64,000 nt of DNA from Candidatus Latescibacterota bacterium (GCA_963791045.1 CAWBQK010000011.1:320001-384000), one strand, 5' to 3'; counted from the stretch's first letter, positions 4,328-26,291 are shown. Notes: generated from the letters alone by a model not told the origin. A program made the numbers and translations.

Positions 4328-4342
4328 TGGCACGGCTGTTGC
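4328..4342 (+). promoter_or_regulatory. sigma54 (-24/-12) promoter upstream of pat-cydAB
   Basis: TGGCACGGCTGTTGC matches TGGCACG-N4-TTGC exactly; intergenic, about 120 nt before the pat start. Confidence 0.75.
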
Positions 4343-4464
4343 GATGTCCCCTGTAAACCAGAGCCAAAACTTTTTGCGGCCCGTCCGTGCGAGTGCCGGG
4401 GCAGAGGTGTTGAAGAGTGGCTGGGAATGTCGGGCGGGCCGCAATTGCCTAAATGGAGGAAGTT

Positions 4465-7329: not shown

Positions 7330-8661
7330 ATGGACGCTGTATTTTTGTCCCGAATTCAGTTTGCCATCACAATCGGGTTCCATTTTATCTTTCCGCCGAT
7401 TTCGATCGGTCTGGTGTGGCTCCTGGTGATTGCCGAGTATCTCGGTTGGCGGAAGAATGATGAGACCTGGGTCAATCTGGGGAGATTCTTTGCGAAGCTC
7501 TTAGCGTTGACGTTTGCCGTGGGTGTTGCAACGGGAATCGTCATGGAATTCCAGTTTGGCATGAACTGGGCGAAGTACTCGGAGTTCGTCGGTGACATCT
7601 TTGGCGCACCGCTCGCCGCAGAGGGCGTGTTCGCCTTTTTCCTCGAGTCGAGTTTTCTCGCGCTCTACCTGTTTGGCCGGAACCGGGTGTCAAAAGGCGT
7701 TCACTGGTTCTCTGTGCTCATGGTGGCCGTGGGAGCGACGATATCTGCTTTTTGGATTCTCGTTGCCAATTCGTGGCAGCAGACCCCCGCCGGATATGTT
7801 GTTCGCAACGGCCGAGCGGAGCTTACGAGCTTTTCCGAAGCGGTGTTCAACCCGTCAATGTTCCAGCGTTTCTTTCATACCGTCGATGCCGCGCTTATTG
7901 CCGGTGCGTTTTTTATGGCGGGTATCGCCGCATTTCTTCTTCTGAAAAACAAAGACAATGTTGTTGCCAGAAAGGCAATCAAGCTCTCTTGTATCTTCGG
8001 AATCATCGTCTCTGTCCTCGCCGTATTTCCGACGGGCCATGAACACGCCCGGCAGGTCGCGCGGACACAACCGGAGAAATTCGCCGCGATCGAAGGGCTT
8101 TACACGAGCCAGACAAACGCGCCGCTGGTGCTATTCGGTCTCGTCAATCATCTGCCGCCCGAACTCGGCGCCAAGGTCGAAATCCCAGGGATGTTGAGTT
8201 GGATGGCGTTTGGAGACACGAATGCCCCTCTGGTGGGGATTTCAGATTTTCCGGCGGATGAGATCCCGCCGCTGTGGCCGACATTTGTGTCGTTCCACAA
8301 TATGGTCATTCTCGGAATGTACTTTATCGGGGTTATGGCGCTGGCGCTGCTTCTTCTTTGGCGCGAAAAGATCTGGGACAACCGTCTGTTTTTGAAGCTC
8401 CTCGTGTTTTCCCTGCCATTACCTGTCGTCGCGATTCAGTTCGGCTGGGCGGCCGCTGAAATCGGCCGGCAGCCATGGATTGTTTACAAGCTCCTGAGAA
8501 CGAGCGAGGCGGCCTCGGTCAACGTGAGCGCCGGCGAGATTCTTTTCTCCATCATTCTCTTTAGTGTCGTTTACCTCTTCCTGGGTGCGCTATGGGTCTT
8601 TTTGCTTGTGCGAGAGACCAATCATTTTCATGAAGCCACCGCAAAGGAGGTGCAGTCATGA
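7330..8661 (+). CDS. cydA: Cytochrome bd quinol oxidase subunit I
   Basis: SRIQFA...FHFIF, GIVMEFQFGMNW, AFFLES, ANSWQQTP, QPEKFAAIEG, EIGRQPW. Confidence 0.97.
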   Translation: MDAVFLSRIQFAITIGFHFIFPPISIGLVWLLVIAEYLGWRKNDETWVNLGRFFAKLLALTFAVGVATGIVMEFQFGMNWAKYSEFVGDIFGAPLAAEGVFAFFLESSFLALYLFGRNRVSKGVHWFSVLMVAVGATISAFWILVANSWQQTPAGYVVRNGRAELTSFSEAVFNPSMFQRFFHTVDAALIAGAFFMAGIAAFLLLKNKDNVVARKAIKLSCIFGIIVSVLAVFPTGHEHARQVARTQPEKFAAIEGLYTSQTNAPLVLFGLVNHLPPELGAKVEIPGMLSWMAFGDTNAPLVGISDFPADEIPPLWPTFVSFHNMVILGMYFIGVMALALLLLWREKIWDNRLFLKLLVFSLPLPVVAIQFGWAAAEIGRQPWIVYKLLRTSEAASVNVSAGEILFSIILFSVVYLFLGALWVFLLVRETNHFHEATAKEVQS

Positions 8662-9677
8662 TCGATCTCAACACGATCTGGTTTGTCTTGTTTGGTGTCC
8701 TTATTGCCGGGTACGCGATCCTCGACGGGTTCGATCTCGGTGTCGGGGTGCTGCACCTCTTTGGCCGGAGCGACAACGAGAGGCGAATTCACATAAACGC
8801 AATCGGTCCGGTGTGGGACGGAAACGAAGTGTGGCTCCTCACCGCCGGTGGGGCGCTTTTTGCTGCCTTCCCGAGGGTCTATGCGACGGTTTTTAGTTCG
8901 TTCTACCTCGCGCTGGTGCTGCTTCTCGTCTTTCTCATCATGCGGGCCGTGTCCATGGAGTTCCGTGGAAAGGTCGAGTCGCTCGGGTGGCGGAAATTCT
9001 GGGACTGGTCGTTTGGACTTGGGAGTCTTGGGCCGGCGCTTCTCTTTGGTGTCGCGGTGGGGAACATCCTCCGCGGGATACCGATTACGGATGACCGGGT
9101 GTTTACGGGCTCATTCTTTGGGCTGTTGAACCCCTATGCGCTTCTTATTGGTGTACTGAGTCTTGTGATGTTTACTATGCACGGGGCGCTCTACATGACA
9201 CTCAAGACTGACGGCGATCTCCAGGAGCGAATGAAAGCGTGGGCGACAAAATCATGGGTCGCATTTGTTGTTTTGTATGTTGCCGCCACCATCGCGACGT
9301 TTTTTGTGTCATCGTTTCTCTTTGAAGGGGTTCTCGGGAACGCGATCTTCTGGATCTTCTTTGTGTTGTTGCTCGTGTCGATCCTCTATATCCCGGTGGC
9401 GACAAACGCGAGACGGTACTGGGCGGCGATGCTCGCGAGCGCTCTCACCATTATCTCGATGATAGGGCTTGCCGCGGTGAGTATGTTCCCGGTGCTCGTT
9501 CCGTCGACGCTTGATCCCGTATACAGTTTGACGGCATACAACGCCGCTTCGACGCCAAGGACGCTCACAGTGATGCTCGTTATAGCGCTCGTCGGAATGC
9601 CGATTGTGATCGGGTACACGATTTACATTTATCGCGTGTTCAAGGGAAAGGTCGTGATCACCGAGGATAGTTATTGA
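8658..9677 (+). CDS. cydB: Cytochrome bd quinol oxidase subunit II
   Basis: LDGFDLGVG, IGPVWDGNEVWL, FAAFP; ATGA overlap with cydA. Confidence 0.97.
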   Translation: MIDLNTIWFVLFGVLIAGYAILDGFDLGVGVLHLFGRSDNERRIHINAIGPVWDGNEVWLLTAGGALFAAFPRVYATVFSSFYLALVLLLVFLIMRAVSMEFRGKVESLGWRKFWDWSFGLGSLGPALLFGVAVGNILRGIPITDDRVFTGSFFGLLNPYALLIGVLSLVMFTMHGALYMTLKTDGDLQERMKAWATKSWVAFVVLYVAATIATFFVSSFLFEGVLGNAIFWIFFVLLLVSILYIPVATNARRYWAAMLASALTIISMIGLAAVSMFPVLVPSTLDPVYSLTAYNAASTPRTLTVMLVIALVGMPIVIGYTIYIYRVFKGKVVITEDSY

Positions 9678-9703: not shown

Positions 9704-11485
9704 TTGCGTATGAATTCTGACGATATCACCAAAAAGCAAGCCGATCATTTGAAGTACGCCGGGCCGTCGGTTCGGACCGACGACCGATATTTCCGTCTCC
9801 TTAGTTACGAGCTGCTCAAGCTCTCGACCAGGGGGCTGTTAAGGAGAGATTTTCTCCCCAAGGTCGCAGAGATGATCAGGAAACACTGTGGATGCGAGGT
9901 GACGGAAATTTGGGTCAAGGAGGGATCGGATAAACATTTTCGATGCACAGTGAGCGGTCTGAAAAAGATGCCCTTTGGTTTTATTCTCGTGCCCTGCCCG
10001 TTGGGCGACGAGACGGATGCGTCCTTAGATGATACAGGCGAGATGAGTATTGAAAGGGTATGCTGTGAGGTGATCAAAGGGCGCGCGGCGGGTTTGTTTC
10101 CCCAGGTTACTAAACGAGGCAGCTGCTGGGATAACGGTGCCGAGGACGTGGTGGGGTCAGACGATCCCGCCGGACAAACCTCGGTGGCGAGGGTCACGCG
10201 GCGCCAAGGTTACTACAAAAGCAGGGCGTTGATTCCCATCCAACTGGAAGGGGAATGCGTGGGGCTCTTGCAGCTAAAGAGTCAAAACGCGGGGTTTTTT
10301 GCGGCGGATGATATTGGGTTTTTCGAGGACATTTCGGCTGTGCTCGGGATTGCACTCTCACATCAGTATGCCCACATCGAACTAAGGGAGCGGATCAAGG
10401 AGCTTACCTGTCTATACGGAATCGCCCGTGTGATTGCACAACCGGAGAGTTCGCTCGACGAGATTATTCAAGGGATCGTTGATCTGCTTCCACCCGCGTG
10501 GTTATACCCGGAGATTGCCAGCGCCCGCATAGTTTTGAACGACCGTGAATACACGACGGACGGTTATCGAGAGACACCCTACCGTCTCGTGTCGGACATC
10601 ATCGTGAACCGGCAGAAGATCGGTTTCGCGGAAGTTGCCTATCGTGAAATAAAGCTCACGCTGGACGAGGGTCCTTTTCTGTCCGAGGAGAGGAAACTCC
10701 TGGACAGCGTGGCTCGTGAGATTGCCAATTTCTTCGAACTTACAAAGGGTGAAAAAGAAAAGACCCTACTTCAAGACCAGCTGAGACATGCGGACAGGCT
10801 GGCAACCATCGGACAGCTTGCCGCTGGCGTGGCCCATGAACTGAATGAACCCCTGGGCAACATCCTTGGTTTGGCTGAGCTGGCTAGGAAGTCGCCGGAC
10901 CTTCCCGCACAGCTCGAAAAAGATCTGGAGGACATTGAAGCCGCATCGCTTCATGGCAGAGAAATCATCAAAAAGCTTATGACATTCGCGCGTCAGCTTC
11001 CACCACAGAAAGTTCTCGTCAACCTGAACGATGTCGTGTCCAACGCCTTGTACTTTTTCGAGGCCCGCTGCGCAAAAGCGGCAATCGAAATCGAGTATAG
11101 ACTGTTCCCCGATTTGCCAAAGATCACGGTCGATCCGGGGCAGATACAGCAGGTTCTGGTGAACCTGGTTGTCAATGCCATTCAAGCAATGCCGGGAGGG
11201 GGCGTGCTTACGGTGGAGACACGAGCGGTTGACGGGGGAGCCCGTCTGAGCGTTGGAGATACCGGAGAGGGAATCAACGATGAGAACAAGAGCCAGGTGT
11301 TCTTGCCGTTCTTTTCGACGAAAGACGTGAACGAGGGCACCGGCTTGGGCCTTGCGGTGGTTCATGGTATCATTCACGCGCATGGTGGTGAGGTCACGTT
11401 CGAAACAACGATCGGAAAAGGCGCGAGATTTGATGTTTATCTGCCGCTGGCGGCACCCAACGGATCCGAACGGATGAGCGAATGA
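9704..11485 (+). CDS. Cytoplasmic sensor histidine kinase (GAF + GAF-like module + HisKA/HATPase, NtrB-like)
   Basis: H-box [13 protein letters not shown]-box [11 protein letters not shown]1 DTGEG, G2 GTGLGL; no TM helices; contains the [12 protein letters not shown]...GPFLSEE module. Confidence 0.92.
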
Positions 11486-12834
11486 AAAACGAGACAGAGC
11501 GAGAGCACATTCTGATAGTGGACGACTCTCCGAAAACATTGGAAATGCTCGAACGGCATCTCCGGTCCGAGGGATACGAGGTAGTAGCAGCTACGGGTGT
11601 TGCGGAGGCTATCACTCTACTCGACGATACGGCTGTGGATCTGGTGATCACGGATTTGAAGATGCCCGAAATCTCGGGAATGGACCTGGTTCGTTACGTC
11701 CGCGAGAACCTGAAGACAACCGAAGTGATGATGATCACAGGTTACGCCACCGTTGAGGGTGCCGTCGATGCGATCAAGGCGGGTGCTGAGGAGTATCTGA
11801 CGAAACCTTTTACTGCGGACGAGCTCTTTTCCGCCGTCCGGCGGGCTCTCGATAAACTCAAGCTTCGAATGGCCAGCCTGGATCAGACACCACAGGATAT
11901 CAGATCTCAATACGGCATTCTCGGTGAATCGGAACCCGTCAACAAGGTGTTGAAGGCTATTACCAAGGCGGCGTCGACTGCGGCTACGGTGTTGATCACC
12001 GGTCAGAGTGGCACCGGCAAAGAACTGGTGGCCAGAGCGATACATTACAGCAGCAAACGTGTGTCAGCGCCATTCGTGCCGGTCAACTGCGGAGGAATCC
12101 CGGAGAGCCTGTTGGAAAGCGAGTTGTTTGGTTACGTCAAAGGTGCCTTTACGGGGGCGCTGGAGTCCCGGGCGGGTTTCTTCCAAACCGCCGATGGCGG
12201 TACGATTTTTCTGGATGAAGTCAGCGAGACGAGTCTCGCCATGCAGGTCAAACTCCTCAGGGTTCTTCAGGAAAGGGAAGTTTGCATGGTCGGCTCCGCG
12301 CAGTCGAGAAAAGTCAACGTGCGGGTTCTCGCAGCCACGAACAAGGATCTCTTGAGCCTGGTCAAAAAAGGCACCTTTCGCGAGGATCTTTTTTATCGGT
12401 TGAACGTGATCGAAATAGCGATTCCGCCGCTGCAGGCGAGGGGAGACGACATCATTCTTCTCACCAATCATTTTACGCGCAAGTACTCCAAGGAGGCGGA
12501 GAAGACGGAGCCTCGCTTCTCGGACAAGGCGCTGGAAATATTAAGAAACTATGCCTGGCCGGGAAACGTCCGAGAACTCGAAAACATGGTGCACAGCGTT
12601 GTCGTGATGGCGGATTCCGAGTTCATCGATGTGCCCGATCTCCCCGCACTGATGCATCATTCGGACGTGCCGGAAAAAGGGGTGCACAGGACACTGGTCG
12701 AGGTGGAGTCTGAACACATCCGCAATGTGCTGGCGTCAGTGAGTGGCAACAAGGGCCGTGCGGCCTCCATTCTTGGCATCGACCGGAAAACCTTACGGCG
12801 GAAAATAAAAGACCTCGAAGAAGACGCTGTGTAA
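11482..12834 (+). CDS. sigma54-dependent response regulator (NtrC family)
   Basis: REC (IVDD, DLKMP, KP), AAA+ GQSGTGKE, ESELFG, GAFTGA, FLDE, WPGNVREL, Fis HTH LGIDRKTL. Confidence 0.95.
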   Translation: MKNETEREHILIVDDSPKTLEMLERHLRSEGYEVVAATGVAEAITLLDDTAVDLVITDLKMPEISGMDLVRYVRENLKTTEVMMITGYATVEGAVDAIKAGAEEYLTKPFTADELFSAVRRALDKLKLRMASLDQTPQDIRSQYGILGESEPVNKVLKAITKAASTAATVLITGQSGTGKELVARAIHYSSKRVSAPFVPVNCGGIPESLLESELFGYVKGAFTGALESRAGFFQTADGGTIFLDEVSETSLAMQVKLLRVLQEREVCMVGSAQSRKVNVRVLAATNKDLLSLVKKGTFREDLFYRLNVIEIAIPPLQARGDDIILLTNHFTRKYSKEAEKTEPRFSDKALEILRNYAWPGNVRELENMVHSVVVMADSEFIDVPDLPALMHHSDVPEKGVHRTLVEVESEHIRNVLASVSGNKGRAASILGIDRKTLRRKIKDLEEDAV

Positions 12835-12928: not shown

Positions 12929-13068
12929 TTCCTCTTTACGCCCAATCGTCGATTAAAGAGAATCTCTCGTCAATTGATCCTCGCAAGAAGCGGATAAATC
13001 ACAAGTTGCTTCTTGCGATCGTTCGGATTTGACTTGGTGCCGTGACCGTTTCGACGCGGGATTTTTGC

Positions 13069-13084
13069 TGGCACGTCACTTGAT
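13069..13084 (+). promoter_or_regulatory. sigma54 (-24/-12) promoter of the redox/glutamate operon
   Basis: TGGCACGTCACTTGAT: perfect -24 element, GG-N10-GA variant at -12; directly downstream of the sigma54 activator gene. Confidence 0.65.
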
Positions 13085-13218: not shown

Positions 13219-13416
13219 ATGGTTCGCGATCCCTCTGGAATGCGGAAGGACGATGAGGGGCAACCCGAAAGCAACCGTACGCATCATGAAGAACACGCGA
13301 AAGACCGAAAGGTTTACAAGGGTTTGTGTGCGAGCTGCGCACACCGTGAAACCTGTCTTTTGCCCGAGGCCGAGGGTGGGGTGTGGCACTGTGAACAATA
13401 TGTTGAAGAGTGTTGA
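13219..13416 (+). CDS. Small Cys-rich protein (CxxC-x5-C...HC), possible metal/FeS-binding
   Basis: GLCASCAHRETC...GGVWHCEQY; first ORF after the sigma54 promoter; start uncertain. Confidence 0.55.
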   Translation: MVRDPSGMRKDDEGQPESNRTHHEEHAKDRKVYKGLCASCAHRETCLLPEAEGGVWHCEQYVEEC

Positions 13417-13464
13417 TGTCGTGAAACGCGATGGAGTTTTGGTACAGACGAGAAATGGGACGAC

Positions 13465-14316
13465 ATGAAACCAAATGACTCAGCCGCCGCCGTTGATAAA
13501 GCTGTAGGAGAAGAAGAGGGTCTCATAGCCCGAATGGAACGTATCCAGGCAACGTATGGCTATCTCCCGCAAGAGAAGCTGGAAAAACTCGCCGAAGAAA
13601 CAGGCCGCTCCCTCGTGGATATCTATGGAGTAGCCACTTTTTATAAGGCATTCAGTTTGAAACCGAGGGGAAAACATCTCGTTTCCGTTTGTCTGGGTAC
13701 GGCCTGTCACGTTCAAGGCGGTCCAAGGATCGCGGAGGCTTTCCAAAAAGAACTGGGAATTCAATCGGGGGAGACCACAACCGACCGCGAGTTCTCTCTG
13801 GAGACCGTCAACTGTCTGGGTGCGTGTGCTCTGGGCCCCGTCGTCGTGGTGGATGGCCATTACTTTTCCAAAGTTCGAACGACCGAGGTCAAGGGGATCA
13901 TTGAACAAACCCGTAAGGGGCTGGATCTCGTGGAAATCGAAACGGATGAACGTGTTTTCCCGGTTGAGGTGAGCTGCTCGCGCTGCAATCACAGCCTCAT
14001 GGATCCACGGCATGTCATCGACAGTCACCCGTCCATTCGCGTAACTGTTTCTTTTGGTGACAAGCACGGTTGGTTGGCTCTTTCGGGCCTGTATGGAAGC
14101 TACCGAGTGGCGTCAGAGTATGAGATACCGATCGACGAGGTCGTGCATATGTTCTGTCCCCACTGTCATGCGGAGTTCATTGGCAGCAGCCGCTGCAGCG
14201 ACTGCGCGGCACCGATGGTTCCCATGATTGTACGTGGCGGAGGGGTCGTCCAGATCTGTGCCCGCCGCGGCTGCCGGGGTCACATGCTGGATCCGGGTGG
14301 CGTGCCTCTGGAATAG
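13465..14316 (+). CDS. NuoE/HydC-like [2Fe-2S] subunit with C-terminal Cys-rich extension
   Basis: VATFY, CLGTAC, CLGAC; extension with CSRC, CPHC, CSDC, CARRGC..H. Confidence 0.88.
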   Translation: MKPNDSAAAVDKAVGEEEGLIARMERIQATYGYLPQEKLEKLAEETGRSLVDIYGVATFYKAFSLKPRGKHLVSVCLGTACHVQGGPRIAEAFQKELGIQSGETTTDREFSLETVNCLGACALGPVVVVDGHYFSKVRTTEVKGIIEQTRKGLDLVEIETDERVFPVEVSCSRCNHSLMDPRHVIDSHPSIRVTVSFGDKHGWLALSGLYGSYRVASEYEIPIDEVVHMFCPHCHAEFIGSSRCSDCAAPMVPMIVRGGGVVQICARRGCRGHMLDPGGVPLE

Positions 14317-14357
14317 ACATTTTGTTCGTTTGAACACTCATAGAGAGAGGTGTAGCG

Positions 14358-17300
14358 GTGAACAGGGTATCAAGCGTCTTGGAGTTTTCCGGGCTTCGTG
14401 AGCGCATTCAAGATGACAAAAAGATCCAGTATGAAAAACCTACCCTGGTTGTGTGCGCCGGTACGGGAGGGCAGGCCAGCGGGTCGAACGACGTCTTGCG
14501 GATAATCAAGCGATACATCCTCGACCGGAGTCTCCAGACAAAGATCGGGCTGAGGGTAACGGGGTGTCAGGGTTTTTGTGAAATGGACCCGTTTATCGTC
14601 GTGGAGCCCGGACGGCATCTATATCCGAAGCTCAAAATGGAGGATGTCCCGCACGTGATCGACGCCGCGGTTGGTGGATTTGTTGATGAAAGTCTGATCT
14701 ACAGAGACCCGCATGAGAAAAAGCAGTACCACAACCAGGACGACATTCCCTTCTTCAAAAAGCAAAAACGTTTGATTCTGGGGGACAACCAGAAGCTCGA
14801 TCCCATCCGGATCTTCAACTACATCGAATTGGGTGGGTATGCGGCGACGGAAAAAGTGTTATCGAACCTCGATCCGGAATGGATCGTCGAAGAAGTAAAA
14901 AAATCAGGATTGCGGGGGCGTGGTGGAGCCGGTTTTCCGACGGGGAAGAAATGGGAGCTTGCCCGGGCTTCCGGAAGACCGGATGAACAAAAATACATCG
15001 TCTGTAATGCCGACGAAGGAGACCCCGGAGCCTACATGGACCGCAGCCTATTGGAAGGCAATCCCCACGCAATCATCGAAGGGCTGCTGATCGGTGGGAT
15101 CGCGATCGGTGCCACCAGGGGTTGATTTATGTTCGCAGCGAGTATCCGATCGCCATCAAACACAGCATCATAGCGCTTCGGCAGGCTCGTGACATGGGGA
15201 TTCTGGGAACAAACATTCTTGGGACTGGGGTTGATTTCGACATCAAGATAGTTCGCGGTGCGGGTGCATTCGTATGTGGGGAGGAGACGGCACTCATAAA
15301 ATCCGTCGAGGGATTTATCGGTGAACCGCGGCAGCGGCCGCCTTATCCGATCGAAAAAGGGATCGGGGGACATCCCACATGTATCAACAACGTCGAAACT
15401 CTCGCCAATATTCCCGTCATCATCGATCCGGAGTGGCGGGGATGCCTACGCGAGGATTGGCGTCCCTGGAAACACGGGCACAAAGATCTTCTCTCTTGTC
15501 GGTAAAATCCAGAACACGGGTCTGGTGGAGGTCCCGCTGGGAATCAAGATATCGGAAGTCGTTTATGACATTGGCGGCGGAGCCTCTGGAAAAGCCAAAA
15601 TCAAGGCCGTTCAAACCGGCGGACCGTCGGGAGGATGCATTCCCGCCCGAATGTTCGATCTACCCATCGACTATGACAGCCTGGTGAAGGCGGGTTCCAT
15701 CATGGGATCGGGCGGCATGATCGTCATGGACGAAGAAACATGCATGGTGGACGTCGCCAAATATTTCATGGGTTTTCTCAAGGATGAATCCTGCGGCAAG
15801 TGCTTCACGTGCCGTAAAGGCACACAGCGTATGTACGAGATCCTCGACGACATTTCAAAGGGCAAGGCGACCCTTGAGGATCTGGATTTACTCGAAGAGC
15901 CTGGCCTATGTCGTCAAGGATACGACGATGTGCGGTCTCGGCCAGTCCGCATCGAATCCCGTGATCAGCACGCTGCGCTATTTCCGGGAAGAGTACGAAA
16001 GGCACATCGTCGAAAAGCGTTGTGATGCCTACGTGTGCAAGGATCTGGTCGGTGCTCCGTGTCAGTCCGCGTGTCCGTTGGGAACCGAGGCGTGGCGATA
16101 CGTCGCCCATATCGGACACGGTGAATACGAGGAAGCCTATCGAGTGATCCGTGAGGCCAACCCCTTCCCGTCGGTCTGTGCTCGAGTCTGCGATCACCCG
16201 TGCGAGACGAAGTGCCGTGCCGGCGCCACGGGCGGCAGCTCGGTGGCCATACGGGCTTTGAAGCGTTTTGTCGCCGATCGTGTCGATCCTTCGGTTTTCA
16301 ACCCGGTGGCGGAGGATTGGTCGGAAGGGACTCCACCGAGGGTCGCCATTATTGGCGCAGGGCCCGCCGGGCTGAGTGCGGCGCACTATTTGTCCCTCAA
16401 AGGTTGCAAGGTCACGGTATTCGAAGCGGAAAAGGAACCCGGCGGCATGCTGACCTGTGCAATCCCTTCATATCGTCTGCCGCGTGAAGTGATCGAAAAA
16501 GAAATCGATGCGCTGCTCGATGGAAATATCACGCTCAAGTGCGATGTTGCTCTGGGCCGAGACATCGATATCGATGGGTTGTTCGAGGAGGGTTACCAGG
16601 CGGTTCTTCTCGCGATCGGCGCTCACAAAAGCAAGCCGCTCCAGCTCGAAAATGAAGATGTCGAGGGTGTCTATCCCTCGATCGAATTCCTGAAGGCTTT
16701 CAATCTTCAGAAGCAACAACTGGCAAAGGGCAATGTTGGTGTGATCGGCGGCGGTAACTCGGCCATCGATGCCGCCCGTATGGCGCTCCGTCTCAAGGAC
16801 GTCGATAAGGTCACAATCCTTTACCGGCGAACCCGAGAGTGAGATGCCGGCGTTCGCCGAGGAGATCGAAGCGGCGGACCAGGAAGGGATCCACATCGAT
16901 ACCCTTGTCTCGCCCGTCGGGATAGTTAGCTGAAAGCGGACGCCTGACAGGACTCGAATGCATCCGTAACGAGCTTGGTGATGCGGATGCCAGCGGCCGG
17001 CGCAGGCCGGTTCCGATTGCCGGCACTGAACACGAAATCGAACTCGATACGTTGATCGTTGCTATCGGGGAAGATACCGGCATCGACGCCATCACACCGG
17101 CGAAATCGAGCCAGCTCGAAATCACCTCGTGGAACACGGTTCGGGTCAACCCCACAACAATGCAAACCAATCGCCCCGGTGTTTTTGCCGCGGGGGATGT
17201 CGTCCGCGGACCCAACACGGTGGTCGAAGCAATCAGCGACGGCAAGAGAGCGGCTGTCATGATCGAGCGGTTTCTCAAAAAAGAACCTTTGCTCCAGCCG

Positions 17301-17549
17301 TTCCAACCAAACATTCCCCGGGTCTACGTCGAACCGGTTCTCGACGAAGCGGCGTTAGCCGTTGACCGGTCGGAGACGCCCCGCGCGGCGGCGGATTGGC
17401 GCAAACGCAACTTCGCAGAGGTGGAGGTGTCAATGTCTCAAACGGAAGCCGCGCGGGAGGCCCGGCGATGTTTGCGGTGCGATCTCGAGTTCACCGGCCA
17501 AAAGAAAGAAAAAGATAAAGAATCCAAAACGGGGAGGCAGAGCGCGTGA
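14358..17549 (+). CDS. NuoF/HydB-like FMN/NAD-binding subunit fused to a GltD-like FAD/NAD(P)H oxidoreductase (about 5 apparent indels)
   Basis: [53 protein letters not shown]; then [45 protein letters not shown]. Frames switch near 15121, 15428, 15900, 16840 and 16930. Confidence 0.82.
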
Positions 17550-18254
17550 TTACCGTCAGGATAAATGGATTGGATGTGTCGGTAGAGAAGGGAACGACGC
17601 TTCTGGAAGCCGCTCAGTTTTTGGGATTTCCGATTCCCACGCTGTGTCACATGGAGGGACTGTCGCCTTACGGAGCCTGTCGACTCTGTGTAGTTGAGAT
17701 CGGAGAGGGAGACAGAGCAAAACTCGTGACATCCTGCACCCATCCGGTTCAAGAGGGGCTGGTTGTCAGGACCGCATCATCGCGCGTGGTGAAGGCCCGC
17801 AAGATGATCATCGAGCTGCTGCTGGCATCGTGTCCGCAATCCAAGGTGATACAGGATCTGGCGGCAAAACACGATGTCCGACACGCAGCGGTTCAAACAA
17901 GAATACGAAGACTGCATTCTCTGCGGTTTGTGCGTGCGGATGTGTGAAGAACAAATGGTTGCAAAGGCAATCGGTTTTCAAGGCAGGGGGGATAATCGCA
18001 CCATCGGTACCCCTTTCAATATCAAGACGGAGGTTTGCCGCCAGTGCGGCGGCTGCATATACGTCTGTCCCGCTTGCTCGCTTCGTTGTACGTACAACGA
18101 ACCGGAAAAAGCGGTTTGCGGGGGGTGTGCGAATCTCGGCCCTCCGTGCCTGGAAAAGGATCAGTTCGACGACATGATGTGCTACATGGATCCCTGTGTG
18201 GCCTGCGAGATAGTAAAAGACGACAATAAGTTGTCCGAGAAAAAGAAAAGCTAG
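17546..18254 (+). CDS. NuoG/HydA N-terminal-like FeS subunit ([2Fe-2S] + 2x[4Fe-4S]); one indel near 17885
   Basis: IPTLC, GACRLCVV, TSC; CILCGLCVRMC, CRQCGGC.YVCP; extra C-terminal Cys; no H-cluster or Mo/W domain. Confidence 0.82.
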
Positions 18255-18273
18255 CGAAAAGGAGCAGAACAAA

Positions 18274-19864
18274 ATGTCTCAAACACTGTCTAGAGTCAAC
18301 TCTTCCGCGGCGACTCTGACCAAGAACAGGACAGAAGGATTCCGTCACACCAGGCTCCGGCATGTGCGTCACCTGTGTGGATGGTTGTATCGGCATGTGC
18401 GAGATCGGCAAGTCCGCTTACCGGGGGCATGAGGTCATCTACCCGCAGCCGTTTGGCGTGATTACGACCGCATCGGAAAAAGTGTATCCGGTCGACTATT
18501 CTCATTTCAACATCATGGGTACCGCCGTGGGAGCTCATGGTATCGAGGCGGATTCGGATAAAGCTATCTTTCCGGCTGTAAACCTCGAAGTGCATTTTGG
18601 TCACGACAAAGGAATCAAGTTCCGGCTCCCGTGGATTATTCCCGGCATTGGTTCCACTAACATCGCCAAAAACAACTGGGAAGGGCTGGCCATCGGGTCG
18701 GCATTGGCCGGCACCGGTCTGACCATCGGCGAAAATGTTGTTGGGATGGATCCCGAGGCGATTATTCGAGATGGGCAGATCGTTGACACGGTGGATCTGA
18801 AAAGACGTGTGAAGCTTTATCAGGATCATCAGCGCGACGGCTACGGCGCGATTATCGTCCAGGCCAACGTGGAAGACACGAGGCTGGGTGTCCAGGAGTA
18901 TGCCGTAAAGGAGCTGGGTGTCGAAGTCGTTGAGTTGAAGTGGGGGCAAGGGGCCAAAAACATTGGCGGCGAGGTCAAGATCACGGATTTGAAGAAAGCC
19001 CAGCTGCTCTACGAACGCGGATACGTTGTGCTTCCCAATCCTACCGACCCTCATGTCATCGAGGCATTCGAACGAGGTTCGTTCAAAGAGTTCGAAAGGC
19101 ATTCGCGAGTCGGTATGGTGACCGAGGAGTCCTTTGCCCAACGAGTAGAAGAACTACGGAAGGCCGGCGCCAAGTACGTGTTCTTGAAGACGGGTGCTTA
19201 CCGGCCCGCCGATCTGGCACGGGCCGTAAAATTTTCTTCCAAATACAACATCGATCTTCTCACGGTAGACGCGGCCGGCGGCGGCACGGGAATGAGTCCG
19301 TGGCGAATGATGAATGAATGGGGAATGCCGCCTGTCGAACTCCATTCTCTCCTCTACGCCTACACGAAGAGACTGGCCGACAGGGGAGAGCATGTGCCGG
19401 GACTTACGGTGGCCGGTGGGTTCACGTTCGAAGACCAGATCTTCAAAGGCCTGGCGTTGGGCGCACCGTTCGTAAAACTCGTAGGCATGGCGCGTTCTCC
19501 GATCGCCGCGGCAATGGTGGGCAAAACGATTGGGCGGACCATTGAGGATAACGAAATCCCGGTGTATGTGGAGCGTTTTGGCAGCACCAGGGACGAGATC
19601 TTTGTCACCGCGCCCGAACTGCGCAAAGAGTTGGGTAACGAAATGTTTGAAAAGATTCCGACGGGAGCGATCGGCCTTTACACCTATTACGAACGCCTTG
19701 CTCAGGGGCTGCGCCAGTTGATGTGCGGATCGCGTAAATTCGATCTGAGCCATATCACGCGTGACGATCTCGCCGCATTGACGCGGGAAGCCGCCGATAT
19801 CAGCGGAATCAAATTCTTGACGGACGTGGACCGCGAAGAGGTGAACGAGATACTCGACACATAG
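18274..19864 (+). CDS. FMN-binding glutamate synthase family protein (stand-alone GltB FMN domain); one indel near 18337
   Basis: GGAG RBS and ATG 18274 give MSQTLSRVNSSAATLTKNRT, which joins SVTPGSGMCVTCVDGCIGMC after a frame change; GENV, ELKWGQGAK.IGGE, DAAGGGTG, AGG, KGLALGA. Confidence 0.85.
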
Positions 19865-21710: not shown

Positions 21711-24700
21711 GTGATCAATCTTCTCGAATCCCTCACTGAGCGGGCCAAGGAGTTGACCTGTCTCTATGCCATTGAAGAGGCGTTGAAAGAACCGGATGCG
21801 GATATCGATCGGGTTTGTGAACGTATCATCGAAGCGATTCCGCCGGGATGGCAATACCCGGACATCTGTGTCGCCGAGATCATTTTGGAGGGCATACAGT
21901 GCTGCCGTTCTCCTAATTTTGAAGAAACTCCCTGGCATTTGAAAACAGACATCGTTCAACAGGATCATGTGGTTGGGTCCATCGGAGTATATTACACCAA
22001 AGAGATGCCGCCGGTCGATATCGGTCCCTTTCTTAACGACGAGCAAAAGCTTATCGAGTCTATCGCAGACCGACTGAATCATTTTGTAATTTACAAGAAA
22101 ATGCAGCACGTTCTGCAGGAATGGCGGAACGGAAAAGGGGCGTTGTCGGAGACGGGCCGCGCGGATTGGGAGGCGGTGTTAGACCTTGTTCGCCAGACAG
22201 ACCATGCGCTTTTTCTTCGAATCGCCAACAAAATGCTCAATCATCTGTGTTGGAGCGGTATCGAAGAGGCAGAGACTCTGCGGCCGATGGCCGACACCCA
22301 GAAAATCGCTGCCGGCAATCTGCAGGATGGTGACGTTGAGGGGCCGCGGTTGAGCCGGTTATTGGATTTCTCTGCCGAGTTTACCGAGAGGCTTTTCCGG
22401 ATCGCAGCAAATAATTTGAGCGGGGAAGAAATTCTTTCCCGTATTCAAATGTGGATACAGGAAGACAAGATTGGTGCATTGCACCGGACCGTGCGCCGCC
22501 GTCTCCCTCTCTCCGAGGTTTCCAGCAGGTTGCGGCACTACTTTTTTACGACCCGGGACGAATCGTACGATCGTTATCCCGTCGCCAGAGGTTTAAAGGT
22601 TCTCCTTATCGAGTCGGTTCTGTCAGACCGGCTGGAATATATTGATGCGGCGAAGGATCATGTCGATATCGATGACCTCTACCATCTTCTCCAGAAGGTA
22701 ATATTCTCCGCGGATAGCCACGGAAAGCTCGGGGGAAAGAGTGCCGGGCTCATTTTGGCGTCACAGATTTTGAAGAAAACAAACGGTGGAGGAAATCCGG
22801 CGTTCCGCTTTCCCAAGACGTGGTATATCTCTTCGGACATGATGCTCGAGTCTATTCACTACAACAACATGGATGAGGTTATCGAGCAGAAATACAAAGA
22901 CATCGAAAGAGTCCGGCTCGAATATCCACACGTGATCGAAATGTTCCAGAAAACAGTTCTGCCCCCCGAAATGGTCAATGGTTTGTCCGCGGCTCTCGAC
23001 GATCTCGGAGAAAACCCCATCGTTGTACGCAGTTCATCGCTTCTTGAGGACCGTACGGGAGCGCCATTTGTTGGGTTGTACAAAAGCGTGTTTCTGGGAA
23101 ACCAGGGGCCGCGGGAGGAACGTCTCCGCCGTTTGATATCAGCGGTGACCGAGGTTTACGCGTCGAATTTTGGCCCGGATCCGATCGAGTTTCGAGCGGC
23201 CCGCGATCTGTTGGAATTGAGCGAGCAGATGGGCATCATGATCCAGCAAGTTGTAGGGGAGCGAGTCGGGCCGTATTTTTTGCCCGTGTATTCGGGGGTG
23301 GCAAGCAGCCGGATGGGGTTTCGATGGCTTCCCGATGTTGCGGAAGACAGCGGTATTGTACGCATCATGCCTGGACTTGGGACTGGAGCCTTGCGTCGAA
23401 ATCGCGAGGAACACCCCGTACTCGTTATTCCCGGGCACCCGTCGGCCGCGGTCTACGGATCTTCGGAAGAACGTATTTGTGAGGCGCCATCAAAAATCGA
23501 TGTGATCAATCTCGAGACCAACAGTATCGAAACGATCAAGATCAGCGAATTGATGACGCAATATGGAAGTGAGTTTCCGCTCGTGGAACAGATCATGTCC
23601 GAGTACAAGGACGGCGAGCTATTGCCTGTATCACCGGCTGAAAATCCGTTTAGCCTCGAAAACCAGAGACTGGTGGTCACATTCGATGGACTGCTCACAC
23701 GCAGCCCGTTTGTAGCCCAGATCCGAACTCTTCTTCGAACACTCGAGGAAGAACTCGGATCGCCCGTTGAGGTCGAGTTCGCATCGGATGGCAAGCACCT
23801 GCACATTCTACAATGCCGCACCCAAACCCCGGCGGGGATGCCCCGGCCGGCTCCTATACCCAAGGAACTGACCAGAAACCAGCTCGTCTTCTCGACGAGA
23901 CGATTTGTGTCGAACGGGCGGGCATCTAATATCACACACACCGTCTATGTGGATCCGGAGTCTTACGCCAGTATCGAAGACCCGGCGGACCGCGGCGCCA
24001 TAACACGAATTGTTTCGAGACTAAACGAATTGCTTCCCAAGAGACAGTTTGCGCTCATCTGGCCCGATCGGTTTGCCACCCATCGAGATGAGGGCGGAGC
24101 CAGTATATGTCATCGTGATTTCGATAACGCCGCCGCCCTGATTGAATTGTCCGAGCCCGAAGAAGAGAACAGCGGAAAAGCGCCCGTCGGTTTGCATGTC
24201 CTCCACGATCTCGCGGAGTCCGGAGTTCTTTATCTTCCGTTGACACCGGGTGACGAAGGGACAACGTTCAACGAACGCTTCCTCAGGCGTTCCCGCAATG
24301 TCTTCCCAGAGCTTTTTCCCGAGTATGCTCACCTTGCCGATGTGGTTCATGTGGTCGATGTTCCGAAGGTGACGGACGGAAAAGTCTTGCAGGTGTTGAT
24401 GAACGCTGAACTTGGCGAAGCCGTTGGATTGCTTTCGGATCCTGGAGAAAAGATGGGATACCCCGAGGAAAGGGAGCCCGTCGAAGATGGACGCCCCGAA
24501 GATTACTGGCGTTGGCGTCACCGCATGGCCGAACAGATTGCCGGGCAGTTGGATCCGGTACGCTTCGGGGTCGAACGTATTTATCTTTTTGGCAGCACGA
24601 AGAACGGTACCGCAGGCCCGGGAAGCGATATCGACATTCTGGTTCACTTTAAGGGTACGAAATCCCAGAGAGAATTGCTCGTCCAGTGGTTGGAGGGTTG

Positions 24701-24884
24701 GAGTCTTTGCCTCGATGAAATCAACTACCTTCGGACGGGATACCGAGCAGGCGGCTTGCTCGACTTTCACATCATCACCGATAAAGATATCGCAAAGAAG
24801 ACAAGCTATGCCGTCAAAATCAACGCCGTCACTGATGCGGCGCGTCCGTTGAATATGAAAGAAACCAGCGATGATGCACGGTAG
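21711..24884 (+). CDS. GAF-like / PPDK-like ATP-grasp / nucleotidyltransferase fusion protein (copy C, paralog of 8..3202)
   Basis: ERAKELTCLY...GPFLNDE; GKLGGKSAG, VRSSSLLED, PGLG, EVEFA..LQCR; FGSTKNGTAGPGSDIDI; collinear with copy A over its full length. Confidence 0.85.
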   Translation: MINLLESLTERAKELTCLYAIEEALKEPDADIDRVCERIIEAIPPGWQYPDICVAEIILEGIQCCRSPNFEETPWHLKTDIVQQDHVVGSIGVYYTKEMPPVDIGPFLNDEQKLIESIADRLNHFVIYKKMQHVLQEWRNGKGALSETGRADWEAVLDLVRQTDHALFLRIANKMLNHLCWSGIEEAETLRPMADTQKIAAGNLQDGDVEGPRLSRLLDFSAEFTERLFRIAANNLSGEEILSRIQMWIQEDKIGALHRTVRRRLPLSEVSSRLRHYFFTTRDESYDRYPVARGLKVLLIESVLSDRLEYIDAAKDHVDIDDLYHLLQKVIFSADSHGKLGGKSAGLILASQILKKTNGGGNPAFRFPKTWYISSDMMLESIHYNNMDEVIEQKYKDIERVRLEYPHVIEMFQKTVLPPEMVNGLSAALDDLGENPIVVRSSSLLEDRTGAPFVGLYKSVFLGNQGPREERLRRLISAVTEVYASNFGPDPIEFRAARDLLELSEQMGIMIQQVVGERVGPYFLPVYSGVASSRMGFRWLPDVAEDSGIVRIMPGLGTGALRRNREEHPVLVIPGHPSAAVYGSSEERICEAPSKIDVINLETNSIETIKISELMTQYGSEFPLVEQIMSEYKDGELLPVSPAENPFSLENQRLVVTFDGLLTRSPFVAQIRTLLRTLEEELGSPVEVEFASDGKHLHILQCRTQTPAGMPRPAPIPKELTRNQLVFSTRRFVSNGRASNITHTVYVDPESYASIEDPADRGAITRIVSRLNELLPKRQFALIWPDRFATHRDEGGASICHRDFDNAAALIELSEPEEENSGKAPVGLHVLHDLAESGVLYLPLTPGDEGTTFNERFLRRSRNVFPELFPEYAHLADVVHVVDVPKVTDGKVLQVLMNAELGEAVGLLSDPGEKMGYPEEREPVEDGRPEDYWRWRHRMAEQIAGQLDPVRFGVERIYLFGSTKNGTAGPGSDIDILVHFKGTKSQRELLVQWLEGWSLCLDEINYLRTGYRAGGLLDFHIITDKDIAKKTSYAVKINAVTDAARPLNMKETSDDAR

Positions 24885-24926: not shown

Positions 24927-26291
24927 ATGGCCTCGTATGTTCAAAAGCTGATGGCCGAGGTTCGATCGAAAAACCCCGCCGAACTCGAATTTCACGAGGT
25001 CGTCCAGGATCTTGCCGAGTCTCTGATCCCTGTCCTGGAGCGCAACCCCCACTACGCCGAAGCCAGGATTCTCGAACGGATAATTGAACCTGAACGGACA
25101 CTGGGGTTTCGCGTTTCCTGGGTGGACGACGCGGGCCGCATCCAGATCAACCGCGGTTACCGTGTTGAAATGAACGGTTCGATTGGGCCCTACAAAGGTG
25201 GCCTTCGATTTCATCCCTCGGTCAACCAGAGCATCTTCAAGTCCCTCGCTTTGGAGCAAGTGTTCAAGAACAGTCTCACCACGTTACCGTTGGGTGCAGG
25301 AAAGGGTGGGTCTGATTTCGATCCTAAAGGAAAGAGCGATCATGAGGTCATGCGTTTTTGCCAGGCCTTCATGAACGAGCTGTATCGTCACATCGGCCCG
25401 AACACCGATATTCCGGATGGTGACATTGGTGTTGGCGGCCGTGAAATCGGGTACCTGTTCGGCCAATACCGCAAGCTCAAGAACGAGTTTACGGGTGTGT
25501 TGACCGGAAAAGGGCTCGGTTGGGGAGGCTCGGTGATGCGGCCGGAAGCGCCGGGTTACGGTGTCGCCTATCTCGCCGAAGAGATGCTTGCCACAAAAGG
25601 CGAAGCCCTCGAAGGCAAGACGTGCCTGGTTTCAGGGAGCGGGAAAGTAGCACAGTTTGTCATGGAAAAGCTAATCGATCTTGGCGCGAAGGTTGTTACG
25701 TTCTCGGATTCAAGCGGTTGTGTATACGATTCGGATGGTGTCGACCGCGAGAAACTGGAATGGCTCAAGGAACTCAAGAACGTACGCAGGGGCCGCACGA
25801 TGGATTATGCAAAGGAATATCCGAGCGCCGAGTACCTGTCGGCGGATGCGGGTGATCTCGACGAAAATGCTATTTGGACCCGAAAAGGGGATTGTGCCTT
25901 TCCCTGTGCCACACAGAACGAGATTAGTCGTAAAGATGCCGAGAATCTTCTTCAAAACGGAATCCAACTGGTTTGCGAAGGGGCTAGCATGCCCACGACG
26001 CCTGAAGGGATAAAGCTTTTTATCGATCGGCGCGTTCTTTACGCCCCGGGAAAAGCGGCGAACGCGGGTGGTGTGGCGGTATCGGGTCTGGAAATGGCGC
26101 AGAACAGTGCTCGCTACCCCTGGACTCGTGACGAGGTGGATACGCGGCTCCGATTGATCATGAAAGGAATCCACGATGCCTGTTTGACGGCTGCCGTGGA
26201 GTATGGCACGCCGGGCAATTATGTGAACGGCGCAAACATCGCCGGGTTTATCAAGGTGGCTGATGCCATGCTCGACCAGGGAGTGGTCTGA
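24927..26291 (+). CDS. gdhA: Glutamate dehydrogenase, NADP-specific GdhA family (divergent motifs)
   Basis: GPYKGGLRFHPSVN, FKNSLT, GKGGSDFDPK, GDIGVGGREIG, PCATQNE, PGKAANAGGVAVS, GANIAGF. Confidence 0.9.
   Translation: MASYVQKLMAEVRSKNPAELEFHEVVQDLAESLIPVLERNPHYAEARILERIIEPERTLGFRVSWVDDAGRIQINRGYRVEMNGSIGPYKGGLRFHPSVNQSIFKSLALEQVFKNSLTTLPLGAGKGGSDFDPKGKSDHEVMRFCQAFMNELYRHIGPNTDIPDGDIGVGGREIGYLFGQYRKLKNEFTGVLTGKGLGWGGSVMRPEAPGYGVAYLAEEMLATKGEALEGKTCLVSGSGKVAQFVMEKLIDLGAKVVTFSDSSGCVYDSDGVDREKLEWLKELKNVRRGRTMDYAKEYPSAEYLSADAGDLDENAIWTRKGDCAFPCATQNEISRKDAENLLQNGIQLVCEGASMPTTPEGIKLFIDRRVLYAPGKAANAGGVAVSGLEMAQNSARYPWTRDEVDTRLRLIMKGIHDACLTAAVEYGTPGNYVNGANIAGFIKVADAMLDQGVV

Follow-up and report, generated by a model that had tools for sequence, protein, structure and literature searches.

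An operon joining a HydABC/Bfu-type core to a glutamate-synthase-family FMN protein in Candidatus Latescibacterota and other bacteria

Bfu enzymes are central to the energy economy of anaerobes, and their known third substrates are H2, formate, NADPH, aldehydes, CO, pyruvate, F420 and aryl-CoA. The question of what else such an enzyme might be wired to is raised by a locus in a stretch of DNA from a Candidatus Latescibacterota bacterium (GCA_963791045.1 CAWBQK010000011.1:320001-384000; all 64,000 nt of it are called the window here). At 13219-19864 on the + strand we read an operon that encodes a small Cys-rich protein, NuoE-like, NuoF-like and short iron-sulfur subunits (A, B and C), and a stand-alone FMN protein of the glutamate synthase family (D). 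Two key questions are: (i) whether the triad A-B-C is a Bfu-type core; and (ii) which reaction D would bring to it.

Judged by sequence comparison, the A-B-C triad is a genuine HydABC/Bfu-type core. Very probably, D provides the catalytic subunit of such a complex. Our best explanation of the whole, which we put forward tentatively, is a Bfu-type complex whose D subunit interconverts glutamate and 2-oxoglutarate plus NH4+.

Genes were called from an open reading frame (ORF) listing and Pfam, with NCBIfam used in addition. The closest intact relative, a Latescibacterota chromosome with 78% DNA identity (L001), served as the reference for alignment and numbering. A scan with one genome per species gave at least 594 relatives of D, of which the best 80 loci were analysed; the denominators of synteny counts are the loci with enough flanking sequence.

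The A-B-C triad

The core of subunit B consists of a three-Cys thioredoxin-like N-domain, an FMN/NADH site, the B1 cluster and the B2-site ligands. Residues 1-572 score 652.5 bits against HydB of the A. mobile NiFe-Bfu enzyme, 626.8 against 9mqx_B (WorABCSL), 624.2 against HydB 7q4v, 610.5 against NfnB 9n5u and 525.9 against T. maritima HydB, compared with 377.9 (FdsB) and ~357 bits (NuoF) for the non-bifurcating relatives. NuoF-type FMN/NADH, SLBB and B1 [4Fe-4S] domains are all present by Pfam, and the B1 cysteines are kept in 63 of 63 B subunits. The same is true of the B2-site ligands C461, H548, C554 and C559 (L001 numbering; a Cys, then His-x5-Cys-x4-Cys), which align with the A. mobile motif and which Schut et al. 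(PMC9304861) describe as a ligand set absent from non-bifurcating homologs. An Ala/Met pair beside the FMN site, called Bfu-specific in the same survey (PMC9304861), occurs in 52/52 long and 9/9 scored short forms of B (for the two forms, see below). An earlier sequence-only reading of the window had proposed a HydABC-like triad with no hydrogenase or formate dehydrogenase domain. The triad is borne out by the B-core scores (526-652 bits against bifurcating enzymes, at most 378 against FdsB and NuoF) together with the B2 ligands, and the domain content was also correct by Pfam, which finds no hydrogenase or molybdopterin domain among the operon genes.

The same reading had noticed that the second Cys of B's N-terminal FeS motif is replaced. 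It is a Gly in the window, and the four-Cys form of B5, the N-terminal thioredoxin-like [2Fe-2S] site, is found in none of the 63 B subunits, most of which have three Cys. The replacement follows an either/or rule: each B has Cys33 with Gly or Ala at 37, or Ser or Pro at 33 with Cys37, and never both Cys (positions 33 and 37 of L001 B correspond to window ~14454-14468). A site of three Cys is thus preserved in one of two ways. An active archaeal NfnABC has Zn at B5 (PMC12018979), and Zn may also occupy B2 and B5 in Bfu enzymes of solved structure (PMC12018979, PMC12318220); the loss of the four-Cys B5 is therefore not disqualifying, and it is doubtful how far such a site marks out the family.

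Subunit A combines a thioredoxin-like [2Fe-2S] domain with a Cys-rich, zinc-ribbon-like C-terminal tail of ~130 aa. Its best solved relatives are HydC 8a6t_C (137.6 bits) and the NiFe-Bfu C subunit 7t2r_C (125.5 bits), and it has the NuoE-like BfuC feature with the C1 [2Fe-2S] cluster, whose four Cys are kept in 52-53 of 53 sequences. In subunit C, a [2Fe-2S] site is combined with two [4Fe-4S] sites and a C-terminal region of eight Cys; the window copy has a frameshift at ~17881. The subunit thereby contains the BfuA feature of an N-terminal [2Fe-2S] site plus [4Fe-4S] clusters (Cys kept in 58-62 of 62), and its closest solved relative is 9mqx_A (WorA, 247 aa; 128.6 bits). Both subunits have cysteines to spare. 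The tail of A (residues ~150-283, window 13915-14316) holds eight invariant Cys beyond the cluster ligands (53/53), and residues ~177-220 of C (window ~18075-18210) hold eight extra ones (61-62 of 62). These regions have no counterpart in the solved HydC and WorA relatives, and may be additional metal sites or docking elements for D. WorA is the short BfuA of the tungsten aldehyde oxidoreductase WorABCSL, in which its C-terminal region recruits the catalytic module (PDB 9MQX; PMC12318220).

The small Cys-rich ORF 5′ of A may encode a fifth subunit, a metal-binding partner or a regulator. A tblastn match at E <= 1e-4 lies directly 5′ of A in ~40 loci (51 with any match). The protein is a single repeat in the window and in L001, and in 19 loci a tandem two-repeat protein of ~100-150 aa (e.g., L056:4530-4865 and L002:4728-5087), with four Cys per repeat. 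No Pfam or NCBIfam family matches it, and the nearest Atlas clusters are unnamed hypothetical proteins.

At the C-terminus of B, there are two alternative arrangements. In canonical BfuB this end is a ferredoxin-type 2x[4Fe-4S] domain with clusters B3 and B4 (IPR017896). Ten of the 63 loci have such a short form, in which B is a canonical HydB of 616-619 aa with the ferredoxin-type 2x[4Fe-4S] C-terminus; in three relatives of this form (L007, L009 and L017) Pfam recognises the canonical Fer4 domain. In the long form, found at 53 loci including the window, a module of ~500 aa takes its place, and the B3/B4 position of the window's B is occupied by a GltD-type eight-Cys two-cluster domain (Fer4_20), followed by FAD/NADPH domains. 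The module has an FAD site and a GxGxxA NADPH-type Rossmann site, and its eight Cys are kept in 52/52 long forms. The sequence-only reading was right that B ends in a GltD-like FAD module in place of the usual 2x[4Fe-4S] domain, but the two [4Fe-4S] sites are not simply gone, since those eight Cys stand at that position. Two of them lie at the extreme C-terminus, where the first 28 positions of Fer4_20 are also matched; this placement of the C-terminal CxxC suggests, at the level of sequence, a circular permutation.

The best solved relatives of the module are 9bov_A (356 bits), NfnA 9n5u_A (327), NfnB (266-272) and GltD (155-203), and so it is closer to Nfn-Bfu/Stn and NfnB than to GltD proper. 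The two pyridine-nucleotide sites that had been suggested for the complex are predicted at the NuoF FMN/NADH site and at the GxGxxA motif. Because the module sits at the C-terminus of B, the branch that normally ends at ferredoxin would end here at NADP(H). By a quick B-core tree, at least two switches are needed to explain the short form, and the phyla are intermixed, which points to lateral spread. The exchange of a ferredoxin-docking domain for an NADPH module amounts to a natural experiment on the low-potential branch of Bfu enzymes. One Bacteroidota locus (L044:12357-17734) has a second, divergent NuoE/NuoF-GltD/NuoG-like set 3′ of D, 36-57% identical to the window pieces and with no second D.

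There are several known systems to which this architecture can be compared. The type-2 Bfu enzyme WorABCSL (PDB 9MQX; PMC12318220, PMC9304861) likewise has a BfuBC-type core and a short BfuA of ~225-250 aa with a Cys-rich C-terminal region, and the third-substrate site is on separate subunits in both systems. The third-substrate module of WorABCSL is, however, a tungstopterin enzyme, whereas here it is a Glu_synthase-family FMN/[4Fe-4S] protein; further differences here are the FAD-NADPH module that mostly replaces the ferredoxin-type domain of B, the eight-Cys tail of A and the small Cys-rich ORF. Like the NfnABC/Stn enzymes (PMC7483475, PMC12018979), the long form combines NuoE-like, NuoF-like and Nfn/GltD-type NADPH modules, and the N-terminal thioredoxin-like Cys motif of StnB is degenerate as well (PMC7483475). 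In the Nfn/Stn enzymes as described there, the NADPH module is on the N-terminus of the NuoG-like A subunit, in the mid-potential path, and no D-like subunit appears; here the module is on the C-terminus of B, D is always present and C has only ~235 aa. Finally, HydB of the archaeal group F hybrid hydrogenase (PMC11216029) is a NuoF-like subunit fused to a GltD-type domain, as is B; the domain is described as a glutamate-synthase (GltA) domain, and the authors propose it as the low-potential acceptor site. That complex contains [FeFe] and [NiFe] hydrogenase subunits where D stands here, and the two fusions are likened by architecture and not by sequence.

Subunit D as the probable third-substrate subunit

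D has 529 aa in L001 and in intact relatives, which are publicly annotated as ‘FMN-binding glutamate synthase family protein’ or similar. It matches the Pfam family Glu_synthase (PF01645) with 53.9 bits (cut-off 20.4), over profile positions 185-303 of 369 only; two relatives, P0002 and P0131, match positions 57-309. Its AlphaFold model (pLDDT 83.6) is a TIM barrel of the FMN type. A phmmer search with D among 1.84 billion representatives gave just 1075 matches at E <= 0.001, which indicates a compact and separate family. A second PF01645 match in the genome (L082) proved to be IMP dehydrogenase. On a short contig (G145:C610) there is a D paralog with 44% identity.

Two sets of residues are invariant in 69/69 D orthologs. 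The first is an N-terminal CX2CX3CX3C motif at residues 31-42. After the FMN barrel, D has no counterpart to the [3Fe-4S] motif of E. coli GltB (CX5CX4C, residue 1102); in both respects, the four-Cys motif present and the C-terminal motif missing, D had been described correctly from the sequence alone. The second set is shared with E. coli GltB at similar spacing, and consists of QGAK, an Arg 20 residues on, and GGTGxSP.

A variant of D with a different electron input appears to exist. P0131, a metagenomic protein of 800 aa, joins 2x[4Fe-4S], FrhB_N and FrhB_C domains to a D-like domain (39% identity to D), and from its domain order it is a candidate F420-linked version of the D-type catalytic module. 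In this it echoes FGltS, the predicted F420-dependent glutamate synthase of methanogens (PMC3448663), which also provides a GltS-type FMN module with an alternative electron input. The input of FGltS is F420H2 via FrhB rather than a Bfu core, and FGltS is itself a prediction, proposed to be glutamine-dependent (PMC3448663).

The association of D with the triad is constant. C lies directly 5′ of D in 77/77 loci, with B upstream in 63/63 and A upstream in 61/61, so that D accompanies the triad in every locus with enough flank; the sequence-only reading had depended on this co-occurrence. D has 80-91% identity across the best 80 loci, and no other protein of the set is as conserved. The loci span Latescibacterota, Zixibacteria, Ignavibacteria, Bacteroidota, Planctomycetota (including the anammox organism Scalindua), Acidobacteriota, KSB1, Myxococcota and others, and a protein database holds at least 8000 D-type clusters at 90% identity (E <= 1e-20). 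The operon has a patchy distribution in the phylum to which the window belongs, with 13/151 genomes and 13/70 genera carrying it.

These observations bear on a different scenario, in which the complex is an Nfn/Stn-like transhydrogenase of NADH, NADPH and ferredoxin, and D is an accessory subunit for electron storage or regulation. The long form does hold all of the modules of NfnABC/Stn, i.e., NuoE-like, NuoF-like and Nfn-type NADPH modules (PMC7483475), and the NADP-specific glutamate dehydrogenase (GDH) encoded next to the operon would supply or use NADPH. However, the short-form operons (10/63 loci) keep D without having an NADPH module, D is the protein under the strongest conservation, and its invariant barrel residues are typical of an active site. 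The fusion of a D-like domain to an FrhB-type F420 module in P0131 is likewise what would be expected of a catalytic module with varied electron inputs. We therefore consider a transhydrogenase with an accessory D improbable.

With D as the catalytic subunit, a scheme for the complex can be drawn. The small ORF and A-D would together form one soluble, sigma-54-controlled flavin/iron-sulfur complex of the Bfu kind. The bifurcating core would consist of the NuoE-like A and the NuoF-like core of B, which would hold FMN and the NAD(H) site, and C would serve as a short iron-sulfur wire of the BfuA type. D would be the third-substrate subunit, in which electrons pass through the N-terminal four-Cys cluster to or from FMN in the TIM barrel. 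The path would thus run from the FMN of D through its [4Fe-4S] cluster and the clusters of C to B1 and the FMN(NAD) site in B and to C1 in A, and the low-potential branch would end at the FAD/NADP(H) module in the long form or at ferredoxin in the short form (10/63 loci). The data show the domain anatomy, the conservation of cofactor ligands, the gene order and the lack of the partner domains of glutamate synthase; we infer that the four proteins make up one complex and that it bifurcates, as well as its substrate and the direction of the reaction.

The substrate of D

An obvious possibility, given the public annotation, is that D is the synthase subunit of an ordinary glutamine-dependent glutamate synthase (GOGAT), with GltB1 and GltB3 encoded elsewhere; split three-part GOGATs are found in archaea. 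The operon has features in common with GltBD, in that a GltD-type FAD/two-[4Fe-4S]/NADPH module goes together with a PF01645 FMN barrel containing QGAK and GGTGxSP in either system. It differs from GltBD in that the glutaminase, central and GXGXG domains and the [3Fe-4S] motif are all absent, and in the N-terminal four-Cys motif of D. The sequence-only reading had found no glutaminase or GXGXG subunit in the window, and we find neither domain there nor in the organism's own genome (81% complete). It had also pointed to the rest of the genome as the place to look for GltB1 and GltB3: in six operon-bearing genomes, four of them complete chromosomes, GXGXG (0/6) and GATase_2 (0/6) are both missing, compared with 14/14 and 13/14 in controls. 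The complex is therefore not an ordinary GOGAT, which is the outcome that would have refuted the sequence-only reading, and a glutamine-dependent D with distant partners is very improbable.

The reaction that we propose for D is the glutamine-independent interconversion of 2-oxoglutarate plus NH4+ and glutamate, which would proceed via the 2-imino acid at FMN and be coupled to NAD(H) and to NADP(H) or ferredoxin. Glutamate and 2-oxoglutarate are our best guess for the substrate pair, although we would not give them an even chance. The sequence-only reading had suggested an ammonia-dependent or oxidative glutamate oxidoreductase, and it is supported in part. The guess is drawn from membership of PF01645, the two GltB motifs, recurrent linkage to GDH, sigma-54 control of the NtrC type and a lead from Geobacter.

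The linkage to GDH is as follows. Across the 80 loci, NADP-specific GDH is the sole metabolic enzyme that is recurrently linked to the operon. It is encoded in the flanks of 12/80 other loci (L003, L006, L007, L009, L017, L034, L040, L045, L057, L061, L075 and L077), and in 6/32 when only loci with full flanks are counted. Its position varies between the inside of the operon and its upstream and downstream sides, and it often adjoins a PPDK_N protein. Six loci have it inside the operon (L006, L017, L040, L009, L045 and L007), in some cases between the small ORF and A. The pairing is reminiscent of GltAB-GudB, a counter-enzyme complex in B. subtilis (PDB 7MFM; bioRxiv 10.1101/2021.04.12.439528).

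Regulation is the second strand. Of the 50 loci in which the upstream flank reaches 9 kb or more, 30 have a sigma-54 regulator upstream and 28 a histidine kinase. In 16/52 loci there is a relaxed -24/-12 pattern within the 1.2 kb 5′ of A; the background, taken over all loci, is 0.023 matches per kb.

The lead from Geobacter concerns G. sulfurreducens GSU1235-1239, five genes in a similar order, the last of which is a ‘glutamate synthase-related protein’, with a predicted RpoN promoter (PMC2725144); the likeness is limited to annotation and gene order. In one condition, GSU1239 and glnA increased together (PMC6964889).

A different substrate is nearly as likely as glutamate, given the structural ties of D to 2-hydroxy-acid enzymes. 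The same Bfu-type assembly would then act on another 2-oxo or 2-imino acid, on a 2-hydroxy acid such as lactate or 2-hydroxyglutarate, or on an unrecognised metabolite, and the GDH and sigma-54 links would reflect shared regulation rather than a shared substrate. By structure, the nearest neighbours of the D model are IDI-2 (Z 26.6-26.9) and 2-hydroxy-acid oxidases and dehydrogenases (Z ~25-27), and IMP dehydrogenase (IMPDH) scores Z 22-24; A. brasilense GltS has Z 21.4 with the longest alignment (346 residues). D is thus as close or closer to the 2-hydroxy-acid enzymes and IDI-2 as to GltS. It is tied to GltB by just two short motifs, and no part in glutamate chemistry suggests itself for the frequently linked PPDK_N proteins. 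On the other hand, Pfam places D and its relatives in PF01645 only, with P0002 and P0131 covering the longer stretch of the profile, the QGAK...Arg and GGTGxSP residues are invariant, and the sole recurrent metabolic neighbour is GDH. We consider another substrate to be a serious alternative to the glutamate reaction, short of an even chance.

Several further observations weigh against the proposal of a Bfu-type complex acting on glutamate. With one third of the profile matched, D is only remotely GltB-like: no NCBIfam model covers it, neither phmmer nor a 22-sequence profile retrieves GltS among PDB sequences at E <= 10, and the hhalign match to E. coli GltB spans 83 columns around the GGTGxSP motif, at 62% probability, while IDI-2 and the 2-hydroxy-acid dehydrogenases outscore GltS by structure. 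The Gln and Lys of QGAK and the Arg are residues taken to line the 2-oxoglutarate site of GltS; a literature check gave no paper that confirms this. GDH is linked in a minority of loci and is itself near-universal in the phylum (150/151 genomes). Since Zn is possible at B2 and B5, the conservation of their ligands is no proof of clusters. For GSU1235-1239, annotated as a GOGAT operon, no NuoE/NuoF-like parts are named in the annotation (PMC2725144, PMC6964889), and it may be a simpler, GltD-type version. The seven frameshifts of the window copy, discussed below, also count here. Finally, GXGXG is present in 3/151 genomes of the phylum, so that GOGAT is missing from almost all of it; with 148/151 genomes lacking GXGXG and D in only 13/151, the operon is an accessory and not the phylum's GOGAT substitute. 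A role as a general replacement for GOGAT was considered and rejected on these counts.

A wider implication would be that these operons represent a widespread and unrecognised glutamine-independent glutamate synthase/dehydrogenase (‘Glt-Bfu’), an electron-bifurcating or confurcating enzyme in which the amination of 2-oxoglutarate or the oxidation of glutamate would be coupled to NAD(H) and to ferredoxin (short form) or NADP(H) (long form). We regard this generalisation as doubtful. If it is true, Glt-Bfu would give anaerobes an ATP-free capture of ammonium into glutamate or, together with the co-encoded NADP-GDH, a low-potential-assisted oxidation of glutamate, in either case under sigma-54 control. 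With a Bfu core connected to an FMN subunit of the glutamate synthase family, nitrogen and amino-acid metabolism would join the list of third substrates.

Our literature search found no published description of the operon. The word glutamate is absent from the main text of the Bfu family survey (PMC9304861), whose supplements may list these sequences among 17 unassigned clades. Public genomes, and at least one metabolic model (that of G. sulfurreducens), give genes of this kind the label ‘glutamate synthase’ with no evidence for it. Settling the reaction would correct many predictions of nitrogen assimilation for bacteria of sediment, sludge and the subsurface.

The window copy and its surroundings

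The positions of the operon and its neighbours are collected in Table 1. In + strand order, the window has a histidine kinase, a sigma-54 response regulator, a 630-nt leader, the small ORF and A-D, followed by two PPDK_N-domain proteins and NADP-specific GDH.

Table 1. Positions in the window of the operon, its regulators and the genes that follow it
Feature	Position	Strand	Basis
Sensor histidine kinase (GAF, HisKA, HATPase_c)	9704..11485	+	Pfam
Sigma-54-dependent response regulator (receiver, Sigma54_activat, HTH_8), NtrC/AtoC-like	11482..12834	+	Pfam, NCBIfam
-24/-12 sigma-54-type promoter-like site, ~400 nt 5′ of A	13068..13084	+	sequence reading
Small Cys-rich ORF, 65 aa, four Cys	13219..13416	+	tblastn conservation
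Subunit A, BfuC/HydC/NuoE-like, intact gene	13465..14316	+	Pfam 2Fe-2S_thioredx, 153 bits
Subunit B, NuoF core + GltD/Nfn-type module, five reading-frame pieces	14358..17549	+	Pfam Complex1_51K, SLBB, NADH_4Fe-4S, Fer4_20, Pyr_redox_2
Subunit C, short BfuA/WorA/HoxU-like, two pieces	17546..18254	+	Pfam Fer2_4 + 4Fe-4S dicluster
Subunit D, Glu_synthase-family FMN TIM barrel	18274..19864 (open ORF 18362-19864)	+	Pfam PF01645, model
PPDK_N (ATP-grasp) domain protein, 600 aa	19892..21694	+	Pfam
Sensor-domain/PPDK_N/nucleotidyltransferase protein, 1057 aa; paralog at 8-3202	21711..24884	+	Pfam
NADP-specific glutamate dehydrogenase	24927..26291	+	NCBIfam NF006929, 700.8 bits vs cut-off 536

Compared with L001, the DNA alignment shows seven frame-breaking indels in the window copy, all between ~15125 and ~18340: ~15125 (-1), 15427 (+4), 15900 (+1), 16839 (+1), 16931 (+1), 17881 (+1) and 18340 (+1). 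B contains five of them and C one, and the seventh falls in the first codons of D. The last of these cuts the first ~22 codons off from the open ORF of D, and it follows that the true start of D is at 18274, behind a Shine-Dalgarno-like site. No frameshifts are found in A, the body of D, the kinase, the regulator, the two PPDK_N genes or GDH, nor in three other NuoF-like genes of the same genome, and Pfam reveals no further split genes among the other overlapping ORF pairs of the window.

There are two scenarios for these indels. It is probable that the copy is intact in the organism and that the frameshifts are a local assembly or consensus error, in a region common to many co-occurring species. 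It is also possible, though a good deal less likely, that they are genuine, and that in this organism alone the operon is a recently inactivated pseudogene cluster. Real decay would fit with the confinement of all seven indels to B, C and the 5′ end of D, with none in the ~13 kb of flanking genes checked, and with their location outside long homopolymers. However, dN/dS (the ratio of nonsynonymous to synonymous substitution rates) against L001 is 0.02-0.14 in the broken segments, compared with 0.02-0.07 in the intact flanking genes, so that selection has not been relaxed for long, and six of the seven indels are insertions. A region of high identity in many co-occurring species would also be prone to mis-polishing in a metagenome. 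Two public sequencing runs contained small shares of the region's words (0.06 and 0.05), and gave short contigs, mostly from relatives; none of these contigs spans a frameshift site in a near-identical strain. One relative's contig, from a strain not identical to the window's, lacks the extra base at 18341. In L001 a PPDK_N/nucleotidyltransferase gene (13329-15474) is split into overlapping ORFs, and so indel errors or decay are also present in that long-read chromosome.

PPDK_N proteins occur in the flanks of 21/80 loci. In the window, residues 227-343 of the histidine kinase and residues 8-125 of the second PPDK_N protein (21711-24884) have in common a domain of ~118 aa (BLASTP 36% identity, E 1e-22) that belongs to no Pfam family, which suggests that one signal acts on a transcriptional and on a post-translational branch. 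An Rfam scan of the 630-nt leader gave matches at chance level only. The single exact match in the window to TGGCAC-N5-TTGC is at 4328-4342, 5′ of a gene at 4453-7143 for a Pat-like protein acetyltransferase (an ADP-forming acyl-CoA synthetase-like part plus GNAT), which is followed by cydAB at 7330-9677.

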